From a virus (Duplodnaviria > Heunggongvirae > Uroviricota > Caudoviricetes), in the IMG/VR virus record IMGVR_UViG_3300032093_014924: DNA of 64,000 nt. One strand, 5' to 3'. The position numbers were made by a program, and so were the translations under genes. This document shows positions 11,133 to 33,080 of this stretch, piece after piece. The notes beneath the pieces were generated by a model that saw only the letters and a program-made list of their open reading frames with translations, was not told the DNA's origin and did no database searches. Position 1 is the stretch's first letter. Every line of letters starts with the position of its first letter.

Positions 11133-12557
11133 TTAGTAAGAATTTATTGAATTAGTTGCGATTGTTATCGGTATTGTATCGCTATATTCAATACTTGTTA
11201 TTATATCACCACATATTGTTTCATAGTTTTTTGTATTTTTAACTCTATAATACAATTTTGTACCAACATCACCACTAGCTATAAAACTATCACTATATAG
11301 TGTTGTTCCGACAATATATTGTGTATTACCAGTAGAATAGAAAGTATTAAATGAAGTTCCAGTACTAACTTGTAAACTAAATGTACCAGCAGTTGTTTGT
11401 GGCGGTGTATTAATTTCCCATGAAACTGTTGGGTTGTTTGTTATTAAATCATTAACAACACTCATAAATGGAAAATAAACAATAGTGATTATATCACCAA
11501 TCATAACATCTCCATTAAGAATTATTCTTTTTGGATTTGTTGTTGATTGATAATAATCAACATTATTTGCTAATGTTACACCATTTATCATTACAATGAT
11601 TGTGTTAGGATTAAGTGGTGTTACTGTAGTGTATATTTCATATTTACCAGTTGTTGTATTAAAATAAGGGTTATTTGACCCTTGATTATTTGTTGAACCA
11701 CTGGTAATTGTTGTTGTAACATTGATAATATCGTGTGAAAATTTACCAACCACACTATTTGTATAAATTACAGTTACAATATCATCTTCATATGTTTCAC
11801 CACTTAGTGTTATAACATTACCTGTGAATGTGTAATCTAAATTTGGTGCTAATGTTAACCCGTTTAATGTAACAATAAAATCATTAAAATATGGTGCACC
11901 AATAACAAATTCAGTTTGTCCTGATTGTGGTATTATCACTTGCTGTGTTAATTGACCAGGTGTTAATGTGTTATCGCTATTATTTATTATAACTGGTTTA
12001 TCAGCTACTTTCATCGCTATAAAATAAAAATCTAAATCTTTATTATATAGGTTATATTGTTGACCAATTTTATTAATAGAAGTATCAATTGTTTTACCTA
12101 ATTTATTTAAAAAAGTTGTACAACTAGGGAAATCATAATAACCCTTTATTAGATACTCACCATCTAATGTTAATGCAGATACTGGTATATTTTGTAATGT
12201 TGTATTAGTTGCACTAAAAGATGGATAAGATAAATTATCTGATTTATAAACTGGTGGTAATAAAAAAGCTAAGTTATTTTTATTGTATTTATATATTTCA
12301 TATTTAAATGTCGCAGTATTTGCGGTGAATGTGTCAGTATTTGCAGTAAAATTAAAAGTTAATGGTATTGTTGTTGCTGTACTGATAACATAAGATGTAC
12401 CTGTAACACCACTACAATCTATTTTTGATGCCCCACTAATAGTAAATTGTGGTGCATTAAAAATACAAATATCAGAACTCATATTAACATTTAATAAGTC
12501 TCTATTCCTAGCACCGCTATGGGCATTTTGTATGTATATTAATTCTTGATATCTCAT
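11133..12557 (-). CDS. putative virion structural protein (beta-rich, two internal VxxNGxTL..xxDY repeats)
   Basis: IVTLNGLTLAPNLDYT and IVMINGVTLANNVDYY; T-rich; structural-gene context. Confidence 0.6.
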   Translation of the reverse strand: MRYQELIYIQNAHSGARNRDLLNVNMSSDICIFNAPQFTISGASKIDCSGVTGTSYVISTATTIPLTFNFTANTDTFTANTATFKYEIYKYNKNNLAFLLPPVYKSDNLSYPSFSATNTTLQNIPVSALTLDGEYLIKGYYDFPSCTTFLNKLGKTIDTSINKIGQQYNLYNKDLDFYFIAMKVADKPVIINNSDNTLTPGQLTQQVIIPQSGQTEFVIGAPYFNDFIVTLNGLTLAPNLDYTFTGNVITLSGETYEDDIVTVIYTNSVVGKFSHDIINVTTTITSGSTNNQGSNNPYFNTTTGKYEIYTTVTPLNPNTIIVMINGVTLANNVDYYQSTTNPKRIILNGDVMIGDIITIVYFPFMSVVNDLITNNPTVSWEINTPPQTTAGTFSLQVSTGTSFNTFYSTGNTQYIVGTTLYSDSFIASGDVGTKLYYRVKNTKNYETICGDIITSIEYSDTIPITIATNSINSY

Positions 12558-12799
12558 TAATAATCTATTGTTATATTGATTACTGGTATGTTATATTGAT
12601 TTTTTAGTCCAAACTCTATTGGTTTTTCTAATAAATATATCTGTTCTGTTTTTGAAAAATTTTGTAGAAATGCCTCAAGTCCATATATGTTTATATAATC
12701 CTCTTTTTGTAAATCAGATGTTATTGATTTAACATATTTTACATTGCTATTATGGTTATCATAAAACTTAGCTTCAATACTTTTAATTAACGTAGGCAT
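12557..12799 (-). CDS. hypothetical protein (80 aa)
   Basis: ORF tightly coupled to neighbours (1-nt overlap and 1-nt gap). Confidence 0.65.
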   Translation of the reverse strand: MPTLIKSIEAKFYDNHNSNVKYVKSITSDLQKEDYINIYGLEAFLQNFSKTEQIYLLEKPIEFGLKNQYNIPVINITIDY

Positions 12800-12800
12800 A

Positions 12801-15560
12801 TTAAATTATTTCAAAATCTTTAGTTATTTTACAACAAGCACTATCTGTTATTGTCACGCTATGTATACCACCAATATTAAATGTTGTCGTACTATCTGTT
12901 GAGCCATTACTCCATTGATAAGTAACTGGTGCCGTTGCATTTATTAAATTTAAACTAGCGTTAAAACCATTAAGTATTACTGTTGCGTTTAAATCACAAT
13001 TAGTTATCACTTGTTGGTTTTTAGAACATTCAGCAAAATCATTAAAGGTTTCACCATTATCAGTATTTTCATTACCTATAATTGAAACAGTACCAATAAA
13101 TTCAGAACCATGATTCATCTGAGCTAAACATATTTCTGTACAAACACTTTTTATATCATTATCAACAGTGTCTCCAGTTAAATTAATATTTGTTGTTATT
13201 ACTTCTATATTATTTTTACATTGACCATTTGGTTTATTTATTGGGCTTAATACATTTGGTAATATATTAGTGTAAGGGTTTTTACATAACAATGAACTAT
13301 ATGACCTATATTTAAATTTTTGTTGGTCAAAGATTGAATTTTTATAAACTTTTACACTACCCCATATTGTTGTTGATGGTACAACTTGTTCAACTATATC
13401 AAACCAATAACCATTAATTAATTCAGTAAATTTATCAATTGATACATAATTAAAGGCTGAACTTTTTGTTGAACAATAATTCAAACTATTTAAATACCTA
13501 TCATATAATGCTTTTATTGTAGGGTAAGCTGATATTGTTTGTCTATTTTTAGCATCTATTAATTCAGTTGCTAATACATTAACAAATTCTTCAACACTAG
13601 TTGTTGATGATAATGGTGTTGATAATAAACTATTAAAATCTATTTTATTATCACCACAACACAATGGTGGGAATAAACCGTCATCAGTTTGAGAAAACGG
13701 TATTGGGTCCATAGAAGCATCAAAAGGAGCACAACTTGATGTTGTTATACCATCTACATCTATTGGTGGGCAACTAGTATAACATGAATTACAATTAGTC
13801 ACACCAGTTAATATACATGGATTATCCAATGTATAGCACCAAACATCAGTTTCTATTGCTGATGCTATATCTATATTTAAGTCTATTTCTTTAGTGTTAA
13901 TTACTAATCTTTCATCATTGACATCATAATTTGTTTGTCTTATACTATTTGTATCGTCAATATCAGAAATTTTAAAGTTTCTATTTACTCTAGTTGTATT
14001 ATTTAACCAAGACTTTTTATTATCTATTACTTTTTCTAATTCAAAACCAGGACATTTAGTTACAAATATTTCCGTTTTTTCAATTATTTGACAAACTTTA
14101 TCAAGTTTTATGTTATCAATTAAAATACATACATCACCACAAGTATGATTTATTTTTAAACCTACTTTTATTTTCTTATTAGCTATTAAACTAATAACAT
14201 TAGGGTCATTAATAATGGTTGAAAAAGATAACCAATTTGATGTAAAAGCACTATTTGATAAAGTATTTTTAAATGTGTTAAATCCATTTGTTGTTCCACT
14301 TAAACCAGATTGTGCATATAATGTTTGAATAATATTGTTAATTACTAAATTACATGATGTGTCATTTGCATAATTAAGACCTGATGGGTCTGGTATTAAT
14401 TTTAAATTAAAAGGTTTGCATGATTGTCCACCACAAACATAAAAGCCGCTATTTGGATTATTTAACAAATAAGAGTATAATAATCCACTACCAATTTCTG
14501 GGAATAAATTAGTATCTTCATAAGCTGTTTGTAAAACATTATTAGAATCAACATATTCTAATGTCATAGACACATTTAACCCTTCAAACATATCAATAGG
14601 GTTTGTACAAGATATCTCTGTATTTTCAGCTAATTCGTTTTCTAATTCAATTAATTCTGACTCTAATGTTGTTAATGTTTCATCACATATTTTTTTGTTT
14701 ATTTCTAATAACTCTTTTTGTTTTATTAAATAATATTTTGTATTAAATGGTACTTCACATTCATATACTAAATTAGCATTAGTTGAATTATTTTGTGATA
14801 ATAAATTTGTAACATCATTACAATCAAAAGAATTTTGGTCACCATTTAAAAATGCTTGAAATCTAACAGTACCTAAAATATTTTCCCAAGCAGTTAATCC
14901 ATCAGGGTCTGTTAAACAAAAAAGTTTTGTATTTAAACTTTGTTTTAGATTGCAAAAAATTGAATATGGTGTATTAGTTATTTGTGTTGTAACTATATCT
15001 ATTTCATTTTGGATTGATTCACATAATGCTTTTTGATTTTCAATCTCTGTGTTTTTTTGATTTATATCATTTTTTATTTGTGTTGATAATGAATTTTGTG
15101 TGTTATTTTGATTTAGAAAACTAGCTAAAGTTTCACATTTTATTTTAAACAAATAATCAAAATCAACTTTAACAAAGCAATTATCAGTTTCACCCAATTC
15201 AAAAATACTACCATCATTACCAATTGGATTTAACACTATTTTAAAAGTGTTTTCTATACTACAAGGTGGTTTATCAGCCCATAAACATTTTTGTGTTTCT
15301 TTGTCAAAAACATATCCGTTTTTTAATCTTGTACAACAATATTCATTTAAAATATATGGTACTAAACCACTAGTATTCCCAATAGGATTAACTACAAAAA
15401 CACTAACAGTACCATCTGAATTTTCTTTTATTTGACCACCATTGGTTAGAATTTCTTTTTCGCTTAAACATTTAGGTAAATTAATAAAATCCACACTGAC
15501 ATCAGAAGAATCACCAATACCTATTTCACCATTTATGTCTAAATTTATATCTAAACCCAT
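12801..15560 (-). CDS. Cys-rich putative virion structural protein (919 aa)
   Basis: Long ORF in the structural block; many Cys and CC pairs; C-term YQWSNGST..VTITDSACC adhesin-like repeat. Confidence 0.65.
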   Translation of the reverse strand: MGLDINLDINGEIGIGDSSDVSVDFINLPKCLSEKEILTNGGQIKENSDGTVSVFVVNPIGNTSGLVPYILNEYCCTRLKNGYVFDKETQKCLWADKPPCSIENTFKIVLNPIGNDGSIFELGETDNCFVKVDFDYLFKIKCETLASFLNQNNTQNSLSTQIKNDINQKNTEIENQKALCESIQNEIDIVTTQITNTPYSIFCNLKQSLNTKLFCLTDPDGLTAWENILGTVRFQAFLNGDQNSFDCNDVTNLLSQNNSTNANLVYECEVPFNTKYYLIKQKELLEINKKICDETLTTLESELIELENELAENTEISCTNPIDMFEGLNVSMTLEYVDSNNVLQTAYEDTNLFPEIGSGLLYSYLLNNPNSGFYVCGGQSCKPFNLKLIPDPSGLNYANDTSCNLVINNIIQTLYAQSGLSGTTNGFNTFKNTLSNSAFTSNWLSFSTIINDPNVISLIANKKIKVGLKINHTCGDVCILIDNIKLDKVCQIIEKTEIFVTKCPGFELEKVIDNKKSWLNNTTRVNRNFKISDIDDTNSIRQTNYDVNDERLVINTKEIDLNIDIASAIETDVWCYTLDNPCILTGVTNCNSCYTSCPPIDVDGITTSSCAPFDASMDPIPFSQTDDGLFPPLCCGDNKIDFNSLLSTPLSSTTSVEEFVNVLATELIDAKNRQTISAYPTIKALYDRYLNSLNYCSTKSSAFNYVSIDKFTELINGYWFDIVEQVVPSTTIWGSVKVYKNSIFDQQKFKYRSYSSLLCKNPYTNILPNVLSPINKPNGQCKNNIEVITTNINLTGDTVDNDIKSVCTEICLAQMNHGSEFIGTVSIIGNENTDNGETFNDFAECSKNQQVITNCDLNATVILNGFNASLNLINATAPVTYQWSNGSTDSTTTFNIGGIHSVTITDSACCKITKDFEII

Positions 15561-27411: not shown

Positions 27412-29232
27412 TTATTTGACCCTTACTTTAATATCAGTTTCAGGGAATTTAATTTCATATAAACTTGTTGGTTCCCCGAATAAAGTAAAATCTTGTGATA
27501 TATCAACTTGTCTGGTTGTTGAATCCAAATAAGGTTGTGAAATCTCATTTAAACTATATTTACCTTCACCTACTTTATTAAACACTCTTAAATCAATTAC
27601 GTTTAATACACCACCAACATTATTTATTGCCTCAATCAATTGTGACATGTATATATTATCACCCATTTCAAAATTATTGATATTCATATAATTCTGTATG
27701 GTTATTATTACTTGTGTTACAATGCTTGATTGTGGTTGTCTCTTATCAATATATAAATCAACTTCAAACGCTAAATTTATTATCCTACCGTTAGTTACTT
27801 GAACATAATCATTTAACATTCTATATTGAGCCAAATAAGTGGCTATATTATCTCTTAATGTGCTTGTTGATGTATTGCTTAGTTTTCCTTGTGCATTTAA
27901 TCCTAATATGTATATGTTTATTTTGTTTTGTTCTTCAAAGACACCACATCTAAATGGTACACCAAATCTACCAGGCATTAATGCAATTCTTGCTTGATAA
28001 TCTTTAATTGTAACTGCTCTATTCTGAGAAGCAAAATTATATTTAACCAAATTCCTTAATTCATTAACACTAGGTTCATCTCTACCACCTAACGCTGGAA
28101 ATGCGTTATTGACAGTTAATGATGTTCTAACAGCACTATTTATTGTCTGGTCTGGGCCATTTACTGTCATATCTAGTAATCCTAATCCATTAATAACATT
28201 AACCCCAAGATTTGTATCAGCACCACCACCAACTCTATATTTAACAAATAATGTTGTATTTGGTTTTAGTGTTTCACCTAATGTGTTATTATTAACGAAA
28301 TCACCAATTTGATTTATTAAAGCAATATTTGAATCAAAATCACATAAACTTGTGACATCTCTTGAACCACTACCAAAAATCATTTTATAAAAACCCAAGT
28401 CAGTGTATTCTGTCATGAATTTTTTTGTTGTTTTTATCCATTTACCAACCAAAACATTTGAATTATCTGATGCTCTTGTTGTATCTTCAACATAAATTTT
28501 ATCTTCAGCCAAAGCATCAACTTCAAACCACCTTAAATCATTATTAAAAAAGTTATCAATATTTGGTGTTGTTGGATAATTTGTGCCATCTAATGTAATT
28601 ACTGAATCAATAGACAAAACATTTGTATCTGGTAATACAACTTCTAAAAAAGGAACAACATCACTAACTGTAATTGGTCTTTGATAATATTTTGTGTAAC
28701 CATTAACGACCATTTCTCTCTTTACCAAATTATAATTTATAACATTGCCATTAGCATCAAAATTTGGTAGAATTAATCTATTTGGTATACCACCAATTGT
28801 AAATGGACTTGAAAAATCAATATCTGACATAGTTTCAAATACTTTACCTGCACCAGTTACTTGTGAACCAATTCTTATTATTGGCGCATATGAAACATCA
28901 AATGTATCACCAAATGTCGGTACTGTTACCGTGAAATCAACAATTGTTACACTAGGTCTTTTACCTGGTACCTTTAACCCAAATGTCCTTGCTAATGATA
29001 ATATAGATTTTCTCTCTTGTGCATAATCTATTTGTGTCTCTTGGAACATTCTGTCAGTATTATGTGACAACATGTCACCTACAGCTGCATTGAGTTCCAG
29101 AAGCATTAGTCCGATGGATGCATCGTTAAAATCATTAAAAAACTCACTATAATATTGTCTAACCATATTAATAAGGTCAGTACGTATATCCACAAAGTTT
29201 CTGGAAGAGTAATTAATACCTTGATTTGCCAT
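27412..29232 (-). CDS. baseplate wedge subunit (T4 gp6/baseplate J-like)
   Basis: INYSSRNFVDIRTDL, YRVGGGADTN, GGRDEPSVNELR, QNRAVTIKDY; follows a gp25-like gene. Confidence 0.9.
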   Translation of the reverse strand: MANQGINYSSRNFVDIRTDLINMVRQYYSEFFNDFNDASIGLMLLELNAAVGDMLSHNTDRMFQETQIDYAQERKSILSLARTFGLKVPGKRPSVTIVDFTVTVPTFGDTFDVSYAPIIRIGSQVTGAGKVFETMSDIDFSSPFTIGGIPNRLILPNFDANGNVINYNLVKREMVVNGYTKYYQRPITVSDVVPFLEVVLPDTNVLSIDSVITLDGTNYPTTPNIDNFFNNDLRWFEVDALAEDKIYVEDTTRASDNSNVLVGKWIKTTKKFMTEYTDLGFYKMIFGSGSRDVTSLCDFDSNIALINQIGDFVNNNTLGETLKPNTTLFVKYRVGGGADTNLGVNVINGLGLLDMTVNGPDQTINSAVRTSLTVNNAFPALGGRDEPSVNELRNLVKYNFASQNRAVTIKDYQARIALMPGRFGVPFRCGVFEEQNKINIYILGLNAQGKLSNTSTSTLRDNIATYLAQYRMLNDYVQVTNGRIINLAFEVDLYIDKRQPQSSIVTQVIITIQNYMNINNFEMGDNIYMSQLIEAINNVGGVLNVIDLRVFNKVGEGKYSLNEISQPYLDSTTRQVDISQDFTLFGEPTSLYEIKFPETDIKVRVK

Positions 29233-29289: not shown

Positions 29290-29676
29290 TTATATTTTAA
29301 CTATAATAAAATCTCTTGCTGTAAAAACACCGTCATTAATTGTGTATTCTAATTTTATTACAGCGGTATATTCTCTTTCTTCATCTTCTGTAACTGATAA
29401 ATTATCAATATTAATTGTGGGGAAATATTTTTTTACTGTTGTTGATATTTCATCTTGTAAGTCACTATATGTGATACTATCATTTGGTTCAAATATATAT
29501 AATAATAAATTAGTACCAAAATCTGGATTATATAATCTCTGACCCTTTCTTGTTAATATTAAATGCATTAAATCAGCTTTAATTGCAGCATTATCTGTTG
29601 TCGTTAAATCAAGAAAAAAACCCTCTGGACTATTCTTAAACGGAAAATTAATATTTATATATCTCTTGCTAGCCAT
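29290..29676 (-). CDS. baseplate wedge subunit gp25-like
   Basis: LILTRKGQRLYNPDFGTNLLLYIFEP motif. Confidence 0.92.
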   Translation of the reverse strand: MASKRYININFPFKNSPEGFFLDLTTTDNAAIKADLMHLILTRKGQRLYNPDFGTNLLLYIFEPNDSITYSDLQDEISTTVKKYFPTINIDNLSVTEDEEREYTAVIKLEYTINDGVFTARDFIIVKI

Positions 29677-29715: not shown

Positions 29716-29755
29716 ATAAATAAAAAAACCCCTAATGTTATTTAGAGGTTTTATT
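29716..29755 (-). terminator. rho-independent terminator, copy 1 of a 40-bp direct repeat
   Basis: Minus strand AAAACCTCTAA-loop-TTAGGGGTTTTTTT; identical to 30165-30204. Confidence 0.8.
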
Positions 29756-29772
29756 ATTTTTGTGTGGTGGGG

Positions 29773-30090
29773 TTATTTATTAAATATTTTTTTAACTTCA
29801 TCCCAAGTTTTATTCTCTAAATTTACGGCATTTATTTTAGCAATTTCATCATCTTTAATACCTATAATATTTTTTAACATTGTGATTCTAACCCACAATG
29901 CACCATTTTCCCATTTATCATCATCGTCTTTAAAAGAATGGATTGAATTCATTCTTGGGTCGTGGAACATACCAATCTCATCTTCCTTAATAACCCCTTC
30001 AGTAATCTTTTGTTTTCTGGTAGTTTCTGTAATAATCTTATCGATTAAATTAACCAATTCACTTTCTTTAATTCTTACAACTTTTTTCAT
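29773..30090 (-). CDS. leader-cassette protein 3 (shared MKKVVRIKESELVNLIDKIITETTRKQKITEGV leader + unknown payload)
   Basis: Start reassigned to the ATG of the repeated leader, downstream of TATTTAT. Confidence 0.8.
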   Translation of the reverse strand: MKKVVRIKESELVNLIDKIITETTRKQKITEGVIKEDEIGMFHDPRMNSIHSFKDDDDKWENGALWVRITMLKNIIGIKDDEIAKINAVNLENKTWDEVKKIFNK

Positions 30091-30144
30091 ATCTTTTTTA
30101 TGTTTTATAATAAATACATTAAGAAAAAAAAAAACCACAAATTT
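29991..30144 (-). repeat. ~154-bp cassette repeat copy C (terminator 3' half + late promoter + leader codons)
   Basis: Near-identical to 30715-30868 and 31798-31950. Confidence 0.95.
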
Positions 30145-30164
30145 AATTATTTTTTTATTTACTA

Positions 30165-30204
30165 ATAAATAAAAAAACCCCTAATGTTATTTAGAGGTTT
30201 TATT
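30165..30204 (-). terminator. rho-independent terminator, copy 2 of the 40-bp direct repeat
   Basis: Identical to 29716-29755; follows the stop at 30269. Confidence 0.8.
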
Positions 30205-30268
30205 CTTTTTTTGTGGTAGGTTATTTAAAATAATTTTTTATTCTTAAATTTTCACTAACTTTTTGTTG

Positions 30269-30814
30269 TTAAGCTTGTGGTTTCGGTGCATTGGGTCTTT
30301 GATTTGGATTTACCTCTCCACCCTTTCTTGTTGTTTTAGGACCTAGGGTAAGTCTGGCATAAGAATCTTTTTCTTCACCACCCCATCCGCTTCCAATCTC
30401 TATATATTCACCACTTAATCCTTTTTTTAGTTCTAGGTCTGGAAATTGCTTAGCAACTAAATTACCGTATTTTTGAGCATTAGCTTTATTAACACCCCTA
30501 ATATCAACATGTAATACATCACCATAAGCACTAATAAAAACGTTTTGATTTTTAACATCTGGACTTGTTACTTTTTTACCACCAAAATCTAGAAGTGGTG
30601 TCGCTCCTTCTTTTTTAAATAAAGAATATAATTGTTTACCGTAATTTTTTAATACTAAAGCATCTTCTTTCAAAACCATTTCTTCATTAATAATCTGTTT
30701 TCCAGCTAAGTTTCTAACACCTTCAGTAATCTTTTGTTTTCTGGTAGTTTCTGTAATAATCTTATCGATTAAATTAACCAATTCACTTTCTTTAATTCTT
30801 ACAACTTTTTTCAT
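30269..30814 (-). CDS. leader-cassette protein 2 (shared leader + unknown payload)
   Basis: Start reassigned to the leader ATG at 30814. Confidence 0.8.
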   Translation of the reverse strand: MKKVVRIKESELVNLIDKIITETTRKQKITEGVRNLAGKQIINEEMVLKEDALVLKNYGKQLYSLFKKEGATPLLDFGGKKVTSPDVKNQNVFISAYGDVLHVDIRGVNKANAQKYGNLVAKQFPDLELKKGLSGEYIEIGSGWGGEEKDSYARLTLGPKTTRKGGEVNPNQRPNAPKPQA

Positions 30815-30868
30815 ATCTTTTTTATGTTTTATAATAAATATATTAAGAAAAAAAAAAACCACAAATTT
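30715..30868 (-). repeat. ~154-bp cassette repeat copy B
   Basis: Near-identical to copies A and C. Confidence 0.95.
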
Positions 30869-30880
30869 TGTGGTTTTTTT
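30848..30880 (-). terminator. rho-independent terminator (AAAACCACAAA-ATTTGTGGTTTT + long U tract)
   Basis: Inverted repeat followed by an 11-T tract on the minus strand. Confidence 0.8.
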
Positions 30881-30913
30881 CATTTGTGTAATACCATTAT
30901 ATTCTCAATAATT

Positions 30914-31897
30914 TTACAAAATATCAGTTGATATAGAATCTTTATCAACTTCTAATTTATCGCCATTAGATTTTTTAAGTTTAAAAGTAACTTCTTTAGT
31001 GGGTTCATCACCACTTTGAGATGTAACAATAATTGTATATTCTACACCGACTTGAAAATCTCGTTCATCCATCGACCCTTGACCATAAGATTCTAAAGCA
31101 TAAGCAAAATCTTCAGAATTTACTTCACCTAAATTATCTGGAATAATAACAGATTGAGTTCCATCTTGTCCTCTATGATAATATTCTTCTTCATTAATCA
31201 TTTGTCTAATAGTTTTATTTGATTCTGTAATAATTTTATCGATTAAATTAACCAAATCACTTTCTTTAATTCTTACAACTTTTTTATTTTCATTTATTTC
31301 TTTAGAATCAGGTATAATAACAGCATATCTTCCACCCCATTCTGATGTTCTTGGTATATTTGGGTCTCCTGGGAAAGCGGATAATACAATATATTCATTA
31401 GGTATTGCAGTGCCTTTTTCATCTTTTTTTGGTCTAACGATTATTGTTAATTCATCTGTTCTAAATTGGTTTATTGGTGCTGTTGTTTTAATTGCTGGTA
31501 CTTTTATTTTATTAGGACCTTCAATTTTCTCAACTTCAGTTTCTTGAGCATTAGGTAATTTTTTAGCATCTTCTATTGGTAGTACCAAATTGTAACCAAT
31601 ATTTGGTACTTTAATATTTACTGTTCCAGTTGTATTAGCAATTTTATCAATATCATTTCTTTTATTTAATGTGTCTTGAACTATATTTAAAACATCATCA
31701 ATAGATTTAGCAAAAATAGAACCTTGACCAACTTTACCATGTACATCCTCTAATTTATCTTTTAATGACCAACCGCTAACATCTTTTGTTGGTATTGTAA
31801 CGCCTTCAGTAATTTTTCTTTTTCTAGTAGTTTCTGTGATAATTTTATCGATTAAATTAACCAATTCACTTTCTTTAATTCTTACAACTTTTTTCAT
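30914..31897 (-). CDS. leader-cassette protein 1: leader + payload A + internal second leader + payload B
   Basis: Start reassigned to 31897. Internal KKVVRIKESDLVNLIDKIITES repeats the N-terminal leader. Confidence 0.8.
   Translation of the reverse strand: MKKVVRIKESELVNLIDKIITETTRKRKITEGVTIPTKDVSGWSLKDKLEDVHGKVGQGSIFAKSIDDVLNIVQDTLNKRNDIDKIANTTGTVNIKVPNIGYNLVLPIEDAKKLPNAQETEVEKIEGPNKIKVPAIKTTAPINQFRTDELTIIVRPKKDEKGTAIPNEYIVLSAFPGDPNIPRTSEWGGRYAVIIPDSKEINENKKVVRIKESDLVNLIDKIITESNKTIRQMINEEEYYHRGQDGTQSVIIPDNLGEVNSEDFAYALESYGQGSMDERDFQVGVEYTIIVTSQSGDEPTKEVTFKLKKSNGDKLEVDKDSISTDIL
31225..31291 (-). repeat. internal partial copy of the leader-coding repeat
   Basis: ctgtaataattttatcgattaaattaaccaaatcactttctttaattcttacaactttttt nearly matches the leader DNA. 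Confidence 0.9.
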
Positions 31898-31950
31898 ATC
31901 TTTTTTATGTTTTATAATAAATACATTAAGAAAAAAAAAAACCACAAATA
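31798..31950 (-). repeat. ~154-bp cassette repeat copy A
   Basis: Near-identical to copies B and C. Confidence 0.95.
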
Positions 31951-31963
31951 TTTGTGGTTTTTT
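31931..31963 (-). terminator. rho-independent terminator after nrdA C-terminal gene
   Basis: AAAAAACCACAAA-TA-TTTGTGGTTTTTTTTTTT on the minus strand. Confidence 0.8.
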
Positions 31964-31985: not shown

Positions 31986-33080
31986 TTAACTTGAACAACC
32001 AAAACATTCAAATTGACTGTCGGTTGGTTTTTTGGTAACGGTTATTTGTGTTGAAGCTAATTTTGTATTAGTGTCAAGCTTTGATTTTGTTCTAGTATAA
32101 TAAACACCAGTTTTTAATCCACCTTTCCAAGCATACATTAATGCACTGGCAATTTTACCATATTTAGCATCAGAATGATAAACATTTAATGACTGTGATT
32201 GGTCAACATATTTGTTTCTAATTATAGCTAAATCTAATAAAACTCTTTGTGGTATTTCCCATACATCTTTATACCTATACCTAACCTCTTCAGGTATTTC
32301 AGTAATGTTCTGTATACTTCCCTTATTCTTAATAACCTTATCAATCATTTCAACATCCCAAAGATTATTTTCAAGCAATTCATTAACAAGATATTTGTTG
32401 ATAACCAAAAACTCACCTTGACCAACACGCCTTGTAAATAAATTTGATGTTACAGGTTCAAATGATTCAAAAACACCTAATAAAATCGCACTGGTAGCTG
32501 TAGGCATTAATCCTAATAACAAACTGTTATACAATGGTATTGGTTCTCCATTTGGTTTTGGTGACCATCCTTCAATATATGTTTCACCCTTTGAATATAA
32601 ACTACCTTCCCAAGCTGGATAATTAACACCAAGTTCTTCAGCAATTGTCATTGATTCAATAATTGCTGATTTATACATTGTTTCAAATATCTTATGTGTC
32701 CATTCTTTAGCTTCTTCACTTTCAAAAGATATTTTTTTCTTTGCAAAGAAATCAGCTAAACCAGCTACACCAATTGCTAATGCTCTTTGTTCTAAACCAG
32801 CAGATTCGCTCCATTCATCACTCCATTTATTTTTATTTATAACCTCATTTAATCCTCTAACCAATATCTTTGTTGATGTTTCTATTGTATCAATATCATC
32901 ATGTTCAGATAAATTAATTGATGCTAATGTGCATTGAGATGTTTTTCTTGGTGAGCTGGCCTGGAAAATTTCTGCACAGTTGTGGATAAGTATTCCATTT
33001 GCAAAAAAATTATTATTACCATCTATCGTTAAATCATATACTGGTAATGTTGTCTCGATTTTTCTTATTTTAATCCCCAT
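31986..33080 (-). CDS. nrdA: split-intein C-fragment (34 aa) fused to ribonucleotide reductase class Ia alpha C-terminal part
   Basis: MGIKIRKIETTLPVYDLTIDGNNNFFANGILIHN|CAEIF, then CTLASINL, ALAIGVAGLAD, LMPTATSA, DQSQSLN, GLKTGVYYTR, C-terminal ECFGCSS. Confidence 0.96.
   Translation of the reverse strand: MGIKIRKIETTLPVYDLTIDGNNNFFANGILIHNCAEIFQASSPRKTSQCTLASINLSEHDDIDTIETSTKILVRGLNEVINKNKWSDEWSESAGLEQRALAIGVAGLADFFAKKKISFESEEAKEWTHKIFETMYKSAIIESMTIAEELGVNYPAWEGSLYSKGETYIEGWSPKPNGEPIPLYNSLLLGLMPTATSAILLGVFESFEPVTSNLFTRRVGQGEFLVINKYLVNELLENNLWDVEMIDKVIKNKGSIQNITEIPEEVRYRYKDVWEIPQRVLLDLAIIRNKYVDQSQSLNVYHSDAKYGKIASALMYAWKGGLKTGVYYTRTKSKLDTNTKLASTQITVTKKPTDSQFECFGCSS
32979..33080 (-). mobile_element. 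split intein IntC (34 aa)
   Basis: Block F VYDLTI..NNNFFANG and block G terminal HN, followed by Cys+1. Confidence 0.95.

Follow-up and report, generated by a model that had tools for sequence, protein, structure and literature searches.

The closest described precedent for the locus reported here is provided by the internal proteins (IPs) of T-even phages, in which a capsid-targeting leader is the only common part (PMC12373910, PMC3012670, PMC9026906). The T4 protease gp21 cuts after L/I-X-E, and the 10-residue capsid-targeting sequence of IPIII, which ends in such a site, suffices for packaging (PMC9026906). Arbiol et al. (2010; PMC2839356) put the number of known IP variants at more than 30 and describe the two highly variable T-even IP loci as flanked by PeSL-like promoter/stem-loop elements, a finding credited there to Repoila et al. 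(1994). Here, we analyzed a stretch of 64,000 nucleotides (the window) from IMG/VR record IMGVR_UViG_3300032093_014924, a Caudoviricetes contig of 108.6 kb with a CheckV completeness of 31%. Between nrdA-b and the baseplate wedge gene gp25, the window contains three genes (C, B, and A) that, like all other genes of the region, lie on the minus strand; each begins with a copy of the same DNA module, which ends in codons for a common leader peptide, and continues into a different payload. An earlier reading made without database searches (the sequence-only reading) had interpreted this array as a system for shuffling genes and loading their products into the phage head.

The locus shares several features with the T-even IP loci: otherwise unrelated small proteins carry one N-terminal leader that ends in I/L-x-E; gene number, order, and identity vary between close relatives; and conserved promoter/stem-loop sequences, thought to mediate recombination, lie beside the genes. 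Since T-even IP loci with PeSL-like elements are reported in PMC2839356, this combination has already been described, and the sequence-only reading erred in taking it to be undescribed. In contrast to the 10-residue T-even leader, the window leader has a 22-residue core, reaches up to ~44 residues with three or four motif copies, and has no detectable family match. Here, moreover, the conserved DNA runs seamlessly from terminator through promoter into coding region, several unrelated lineage-specific leader families exchange payloads, and some two-payload proteins carry internal leaders; the window locus also has baseplate and tail genes as its neighbors, in a giant phage with a host of the Bacteroidota type. 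The PeSL cassettes of RB49- and phi1-type phages (PMC2839356, PMC4122927) are likewise composites of a terminator-like hairpin and a promoter repeated in intergenic regions, with flanked open reading frames (ORFs) that differ among close relatives and a proposed role for homologous recombination between the repeats. PeSL, however, stops before the start codon and has a sigma-70-like early promoter, whereas the window unit takes in ~93-100 coding nucleotides and has a ATATTTATA box; the window contig also holds only three module copies. New here are the unrelated, longer, lineage-specific leader families, the seamless terminator-to-leader DNA unit, payloads that recur with more than one kind of leader, small polyproteins whose leader-like linkers are predicted to be cleavable, and the occurrence of all this in uncultured aquatic phages, one of them giant.

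Alignment of the three module copies shows that they are 92-96% identical over 166 nt (Table 1). The unit measures ~155-166 nt with 31-33 leader codons and has sharp borders: when the copies are aligned on the ATG, identity is 100% from approximately -57 to +90 and drops abruptly to background (25-45%) on either side. Along the direction of transcription, the module consists of half a CCACAAA/TTTGTGG hairpin (the 3' side) and the adjoining T-run, a ATATTTAT-type box at -26, the ATG, and codons for MKKVVRIKESELVNLIDKIITETTRK(Q/R)KITEGV, and its hairpin part is the terminator of the preceding gene. These data reproduce what the sequence-only reading had described, i.e., three near-identical modules with a terminator half, a TATTTAT-type box, and a common leader; unrelated sequence after GV, as is the case in genes A, B, and C; a half hairpin at one copy, which is the copy before gene A; and an identical 40-bp terminator repeat around one cassette, which is that of gene A. 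The two T2 repeats that flank cassette A are identical over their initial 40 nt. Four terminator-like hairpins are found on the minus strand and six sites overall, compared to 0.7 expected from shuffled sequences. A 23-nt leader probe gave four matches vs. 0.00 expected by chance. Gene C contains an internal, promoterless leader copy, absent from the sequence-only reading, that is 61% identical to the module over 166 nt and 89% over 81 nt. No further module copies were found in the whole 108.6-kb record; a fifth genome match (L005) was rejected, given that it reflects a similar start-codon context beside a tRNA gene.

Comparison with close relatives shows that the cassettes are exchanged, as the sequence-only reading had proposed. 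In a contig whose flanks are 97.6% (nrdA) and 96.6-96.7% (gp25, gp6) identical to those of the window (L035), the locus contains cassettes of 150, 181, and 181 aa; the last of these is gene B at 95.6% identity, and genes C and A are absent. The locus of L036/L037 encodes proteins of 150, 130, 280, and 173 aa, with the module ahead of all except the 280-aa gene. Gene B is the sole cassette in common between the window (327, 181, and 105 aa) and these relatives. A search of the genome and its relatives returned three module copies in the record and other cassettes in L035 and L036/L037, with payload number and identity differing behind flanks that are 96.6-97.6% identical. The 280-aa cassette without a module (L036:9083-9925) has another leader-like N-terminus, MKKLIRKILKE..., with a T2 terminator and a TATTTAT box upstream. 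In the more distant L039/L040, three leader-bearing genes are found elsewhere, between a tail sheath gene and a T4_baseplate gene.

Metagenomic data are consistent with this picture. In run X10, the flanks were covered at 20-23x, the payloads at 7-10x, and the module at 47-87x; flank depth was ~2.5 times that of the payloads, and many contigs exited the module into other sequence. These depths suggest that cassette content is mixed within one population, of which only part carries these three payloads. Some joints in X18 and X10 would remove cassette A or gene C, but their sides are short (22-58 nt) or of lower likeness, and they are hints only. The window-type leader was present on 27 retrieved proteins representing 18 unrelated payload families, and an exhaustive search with the leader only gave ~18 clusters at 50% identity, which indicates that this leader is lineage-specific. 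A scan of IMG/VR with the back-translated leader gave 0 loci, so close relatives are found only in metagenome assemblies. Overall, gene cassettes are exchanged at this locus as at a hot spot, and our confidence in this part of the interpretation is high. Each cassette comprises the module, a terminator, and between them a payload, which can be of any kind; through homologous recombination in the module and terminator repeats, cassettes are inserted, deleted, or replaced, and at times two are fused into one gene.

The payloads are not confined to the window leader. Payloads A and B, domain X of gene C, and the payload of protein P0141 (from a L035 cassette) were also found elsewhere behind unrelated leaders. 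In other phages, payload A follows leader MATKKITLNELRSIVKQIIKE (P0162-P0169), and payload B follows a MATKKITLNELRSIVKQIIKE-type or RMQxLAGII-type leader or lies within longer mosaics. Related viral contigs have leaders of their own, each common to several genes: four in tandem in L014, five or six in L006, and three each in L022 and L029. Given these shared leaders per contig, the leaders go with the genome and the payloads do not. Gene C has more than 237 metagenomic homologs, which are mosaics; domain X is 60-75% identical across phages, and domains X and Y occur in either order, alone, or fused to others such as HD. HD was recognized in some of the multi-domain homologs, with no other Pfam domains identified in them. 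Proteins with two leaders were further seen in P0172 and P0174-P0176; P0173, a 1771-aa protein with six leader-like stretches, was rejected as a multi-leader protein because these are a coiled-coil false positive. For the homolog search against IMG/VR, a single-protein scan was empty and an alignment-based scan gave the matches. A tblastn search of gene C against 50,697 deposited phages gave no match, and Pfam and PHROG scans of the three window proteins (P0001-P0003) found no family, save a weak PHROG 'tail protein' match (E = 0.0085) to residues 201-252 of gene C.

Several lines of evidence indicate that the leader functions as a peptide. Among 12 copies of the window-type leader, differences within residues 1-22 are synonymous or conservative only; past E22, some copies are wholly divergent. 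Two copies of another leader, in L022, differ by eight synonymous and no non-synonymous changes in 20 codons. This substitution pattern argues that the leader peptide is under selection. The boundary between leader and payload is likewise conserved. Domain-X homologs have a glutamate at the junction in 115 of 115 cases, nearly always as I/L-x-E followed by A, G, S, or V, and this holds with any N-terminal leader family or with another domain upstream. Payload A is joined to foreign leaders directly after I-K-E, and payload B directly after L-x-E (L-x-E followed by D). Per 100 aa, the motif [LI]xE occurs 8.3 times in leaders but 0.93 times in payloads, against a genome background of 1.47 (P = 0.014). 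Within gene C, it ends at residues 9, 22, and 31, is absent from residues 32-200, reappears at 203, 212, 225, and 236, and is found once more at 258, within domain Y; the leader sites in the window are E9, E22, and E31, with E36, E44, and E50 in the extensions. Structural models of gene C show two globular domains, each preceded by a strand and a helix, with low-confidence linkers at residues 22-30, 202-207, and 229-236, and the junction glutamates sit in such linkers. Unrelated leader families have the same design, a helix ending in I/L-x-E, and in the P0141 alignment the second half of the leader, GVRNLAGKQIIKE, pairs with the common motif RMQQLAGLITE.

Another motif, IEEIVNEVLKRYRKML(K/N)EN, recurs at C-termini or between domains in P0005, P0006, P0007, P0010, P0038, P0052, and P0130. 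This motif, which the first half of the window leader (ESELVNLIDKIITETTRK) resembles, may represent a linker or a propeptide at the C-terminus.

Genome context in related phages connects these payloads to head genes. In L012 and L010, a domain-X gene lies between genes for a Peptidase_S77 protease (1.5e-32) and the gp23 capsid protein (4.8e-77); in L029, a domain-X gene is directly upstream of the Peptidase_S77 protease gene. In the 94%-complete genome G001, the gene immediately after that of the protease encodes a homolog (4e-29) of the payload of P0141, which is encoded at this very locus in L035. Overall, S77 proteases were found in L012, L029, G001, immuto, Mel-JY01, and LR756508. The deposited phages with the gp6 closest to that of the window phage, at only ~27-29% identity, are an uncultured 484-kb phage, Microcystis phage Mel-JY01, and Flavobacterium phage immuto; all three encode S77 proteases. 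As a separate observation, G001 has a ClpP-like gene (L013:9404-9970) immediately upstream of its domain-X gene, ~75 kb from its gp21-type protease gene. In the cultured phage immuto (L042, MW353175), head-module genes 199, 200, and 202 have leader-like N-termini ending in L/I-x-E.

By analogy with T4, we infer that the leader is a head tag removable by protease. Under this model, the leader, i.e., a 22-residue core MKKVVRIKESELVNLIDKIITE that is often extended to ~44 residues ending in more I/L-x-E motifs, would act as a propeptide and dock its protein into the prohead core during assembly. A prohead protease of the T4 gp21 type would then remove it after I/L-x-E, freeing the payload inside the head, and the next host would receive the free payload along with the ejected DNA. 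Leader copies inside a gene would act as cleavable linkers, such that one gene could deliver two payloads. The leader is lineage-specific; payloads pass from one lineage to another and take up the local leader. Taken as a whole, exchangeable cassettes with a head-targeting, cleavable leader are in our view the best explanation of the data, and probably the correct one, albeit held with much less assurance than the shuffling. Thus, the plug-and-play head-loading system put forward by the sequence-only reading stands with respect to shuffling and gains from the hallmarks of the leader, i.e., I/L-x-E and the gp21-type neighbors; packaging, cleavage, and injection stay at the level of prediction.

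Several observations weigh against a head-targeting role. Neither a Peptidase_S77 nor a Gp23 match was found on the window's 108.6-kb contig, which is 31% complete, and the protease is accordingly attributed to the window phage by bracketing only. The cassettes lie among baseplate and tail genes rather than head genes, both here and in L039/L040. I/L-x-E is a short motif, and the invariant junction glutamate could belong to domain X itself; the depletion of the motif in payloads is modest (P = 0.014). The leader has no detectable relation to known internal-protein families in Pfam and PHROG. In addition, some payloads have membrane-type segments, which are unusual for T4-type internal proteins. 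Such segments are known in the ejection proteins of other phages.

Structural analysis of domain X gave limited clues to payload function. The domain was modeled confidently, with a predicted local distance difference test (pLDDT) score of ~83-90, and residues H53, K48, R155, and E186 are invariant. A Foldseek search of domain X against PDB and BFVD gave no match at E <= 0.001. The best structural likeness was to CdiA-CT (5e3e_B) with a VIA Z of 6.6 over 97 residues (root-mean-square deviation 3.5), where the tool is reliable from Z 8. Atlas rows for the domain were weak (RNAse_A_bac, PBECR4, and DUF3228). The model thus shows a weak, if thematically consistent, likeness to RNase toxins of the BECR fold (CdiA-CT, MafB, YxiD, RelE/ParE, and T4 RegB) and to DUF3228. 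Membrane-type hydrophobic segments are present in payloads behind the window-type leader in P0150, P0159, P0161/P0171, and P0172, and at L039:10001-11136.

Other explanations were weighed against the same evidence. The sequence-only reading had named repeat-induced misassembly as a result that would undo its interpretation. Short public contigs do break at each module repeat and so cannot by themselves establish whether C or B comes first; this order rests on longer assemblies. However, the 3-kb stretch is almost fully present in public runs from several independent studies (2017-2025) of freshwater and lagoon sites; the junction of every payload with its module shows zero differences in contigs of independent studies (X7, 2017; X9, 2022); and single contigs span the whole length of gene C. 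Moreover, window proteins are recorded on contigs of 159 kb and 290 kb, and independently assembled relatives have a like architecture. An artifact of assembly is hence unlikely in the extreme. We also consider it decidedly unlikely that the module is a PeSL-like regulatory and recombination cassette only, with N-terminal codons kept by gene conversion and by selection on the efficiency of translation initiation, and a peptide devoid of a targeting role. Such a module would account for the near-identity of the copies at the DNA level, which includes 57 non-coding nt, and PeSL elements are known to mediate cassette exchange of this kind (PMC2839356). This explanation is difficult to reconcile with the purely synonymous divergence of the L022 leaders, the internal copies that keep the peptide despite having no promoter or start codon, and the common design of unrelated leader families.

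Two further explanations accept a role for the peptide. Conceivably, the leader is an uncleaved docking or oligomerization element, formed by the strand and amphipathic helix, that attaches exchangeable tail-associated or decoration modules to the baseplate, the tail, another part of the virion, or each other. The modeled strand and helix, the proximity of the cassettes to gp25 and gp6 (and, in L039/L040, to tail sheath and T4_baseplate genes), and the weak PHROG 'tail protein' match are all in line with this. We nevertheless regard it as rather unlikely, as domain X and P0141-type payloads adjoin the prohead protease gene in related phages, the I/L-x-E junction is kept across unrelated leaders and inter-domain linkers, and the motif clusters in leaders and linkers with none inside domain X. 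Alternatively, the leader may be a propeptide that is cleaved by some protease and holds toxic payloads inactive or unfolded in the producing cell, with no packaging into the capsid. The weak likeness of domain X to BECR-fold RNase toxins and the membrane-type segments of several payloads would fit such a role. Yet the likeness (Z 6.6) falls under the level at which the tool is reliable, the genomic link to prohead protease genes points to the head, and it is implausible that one leader inhibits 18 unrelated folds; overall, we judge this explanation very unlikely.

If the leaders are head tags, then this locus shows where a large group of uncultured phages from fresh and brackish water encodes its injected arsenal. 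This arsenal would include dozens to hundreds of uncharacterized early-infection proteins, likely anti-defense or host-takeover factors, and the T4 principle, i.e., a short tag and protease site on any protein, would be widespread and independently evolved in sequence. Cargo could then be recognized in metagenomes by a simple rule: unrelated genes of one genome have in common an N-terminal helix, specific to that genome, with I/L-x-E at its end. The leaders also suggest natural tags for packaging foreign proteins into Bacteroidota phages, and immuto, as a cultured relative, is a possible experimental system. A broader proposal is that aquatic T4-like and giant phages of Bacteroidota-type hosts have a general cargo-loading system with lineage-specific address leaders, a shared pool of mobile payloads, and small polyproteins; we consider this possible, though we would lean slightly against it at present. 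In such a system, the leader of each lineage would presumably fit the prohead core of that lineage; mobile payload domains, numbering in the hundreds and possibly including RNase-toxin-like and membrane-active ones, may take the local leader on arrival; and the protease may cut leader-like linkers, such that one gene loads several effectors into the capsid. If the leaders act as head tags, two-payload proteins would also offer a new route for the delivery of several effectors by a single gene.

Aspects of this proposal are paralleled in other phages. During maturation of head and inner-body proteins in the giant phages phiKZ, 201phi2-1, and SPN3US (PMC9026906, PMC5694885, PMC10052503), N-terminal propeptides with several redundant sites are removed from many head proteins after Glu by a gp21-related protease; the motif there, however, is S/A/G-X-E rather than I/L-x-E, and neither a leader common to unrelated proteins nor a cassette array is described in these phages. 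Polyvalent proteins (Iyer et al., 2017; PMC5512222) also combine unrelated effector domains in one polypeptide that is thought to be delivered with the DNA and processed, and a PBECR nuclease-like fold is a weak lead for domain X. In contrast to polyvalent proteins, which are large, with 2-15 domains of known repertoire and often a peptidase domain of their own, the window-type proteins are small (1-4 domains), contain no Pfam domains, and have leader-like linkers suited to a prohead protease.

Table 1. Coordinates of the cassette array and flanking genes in the window.
Feature	Position	Strand	Description
Module copy A	29991..30156	-	Only 3' half of hairpin T1 kept
Module copy B	30715..30880	-	Upstream of gene B payload; 166 nt
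Module copy C	31798..31963	-	Hairpin 3' half, T-run, ATATTTAT-type box at -26, ATG at 31897, 33 leader codons
Fourth leader copy, promoterless, inside gene C	31190..31288	-	NKKVVRIKESDLVNLIDKIITE to INE; begins at codon 2; AAT replaces ATG
Gene C	30914..31897	-	327 aa; leader 1-31, domain X 32-200, internal leader/linker 205-236, domain Y 237-327
Gene B	30269..30814	-	181 aa; leader runs to RNLAGKQIINEEMVLKE; payload from ~residue 51
Gene A	29773..30090	-	105 aa; leader with short extension (...ITEGVIKE); payload from ~residue 37
Terminator-like hairpin T1 (CCACAAA...TTTGTGG + T-run), after nrdA-b	31936..31963	-	12 pairs, T-tail; module copy C begins (5' side) with its 3' half and T-run
Terminator-like hairpin T1', after gene C	30851..30881	-	14 pairs; overlaps module copy B at its 5' edge
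Terminator T2, after gene B	30165..30204	-	Hairpin 30174-30201; upstream copy of 40-nt repeat
Terminator T2, after gene A	29716..29755	-	Hairpin 29725-29752; downstream copy of 40-nt repeat; gp25 upstream box next
nrdA-b (C-terminal half, intein-split ribonucleotide reductase large subunit)	31986..33080	-	Flank; Ribonuc_red_lgC 2.4e-80
gp25, baseplate wedge	29290..29676	-	Flank; TATTTAT box at -20
gp6-like baseplate wedge gene	27412-29232	-	Neighbor of gp25

Promoter-like sequences were surveyed across the window. The ATATTTATA box is a real upstream element: it lies 10-45 nt ahead of an ORF in 12 of its 16 coding-strand copies but in 0 of 8 copies on the opposite strand. Genes with this box upstream are those of the cassettes, gp25, and gp6, as well as a DnaB-type helicase gene and the homing endonuclease gene. 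Late expression of the cassettes, as suggested by the sequence-only reading, is therefore not established: TATTTAT was rejected as a late-specific box because it is also found upstream of the helicase gene. Examples from across the window, with the box 20-27 nt before the ATG, are the minus-strand starts at 29676, 29232, 34119, 39322, 41758, and 61406. The T4 late promoter TATAAATA was without association with ORF starts (4 of 31), and sigma-70-like sites were not enriched (14 vs. 15.4 expected), with none on the coding strand upstream of the three ATGs. A TAnnTTTG box of the Bacteroidota type was seen ahead of three genes (nrdA-a, a primase gene, and another), at -12 to -15. Separate from this TAnnTTTG box, the ATATTTATA box forms a second promoter-like class of this genome. 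On the coding strand, its core reads TATTTATA, which corresponds to the T4 late box TATAAATA in reverse complement.

The window phage is read as a giant freshwater phage with a Bacteroidota-type host. The flanks of its cassette array differ from those of the L035 and L036 relatives in two further ways. A 37-aa, extremely basic ORF lies between nrdA-b and the first cassette in both relatives (L035:9266-9379; L036:7823-7936) and is not present in the window. Similarly, L035 contains a gene for a 588-aa protein (DUF7487, with a weak Mom match) between gp25 and gp6 on the reverse strand (11830-13596), which is not found in the window and represents a further insertion or deletion within an otherwise 97%-identical region.

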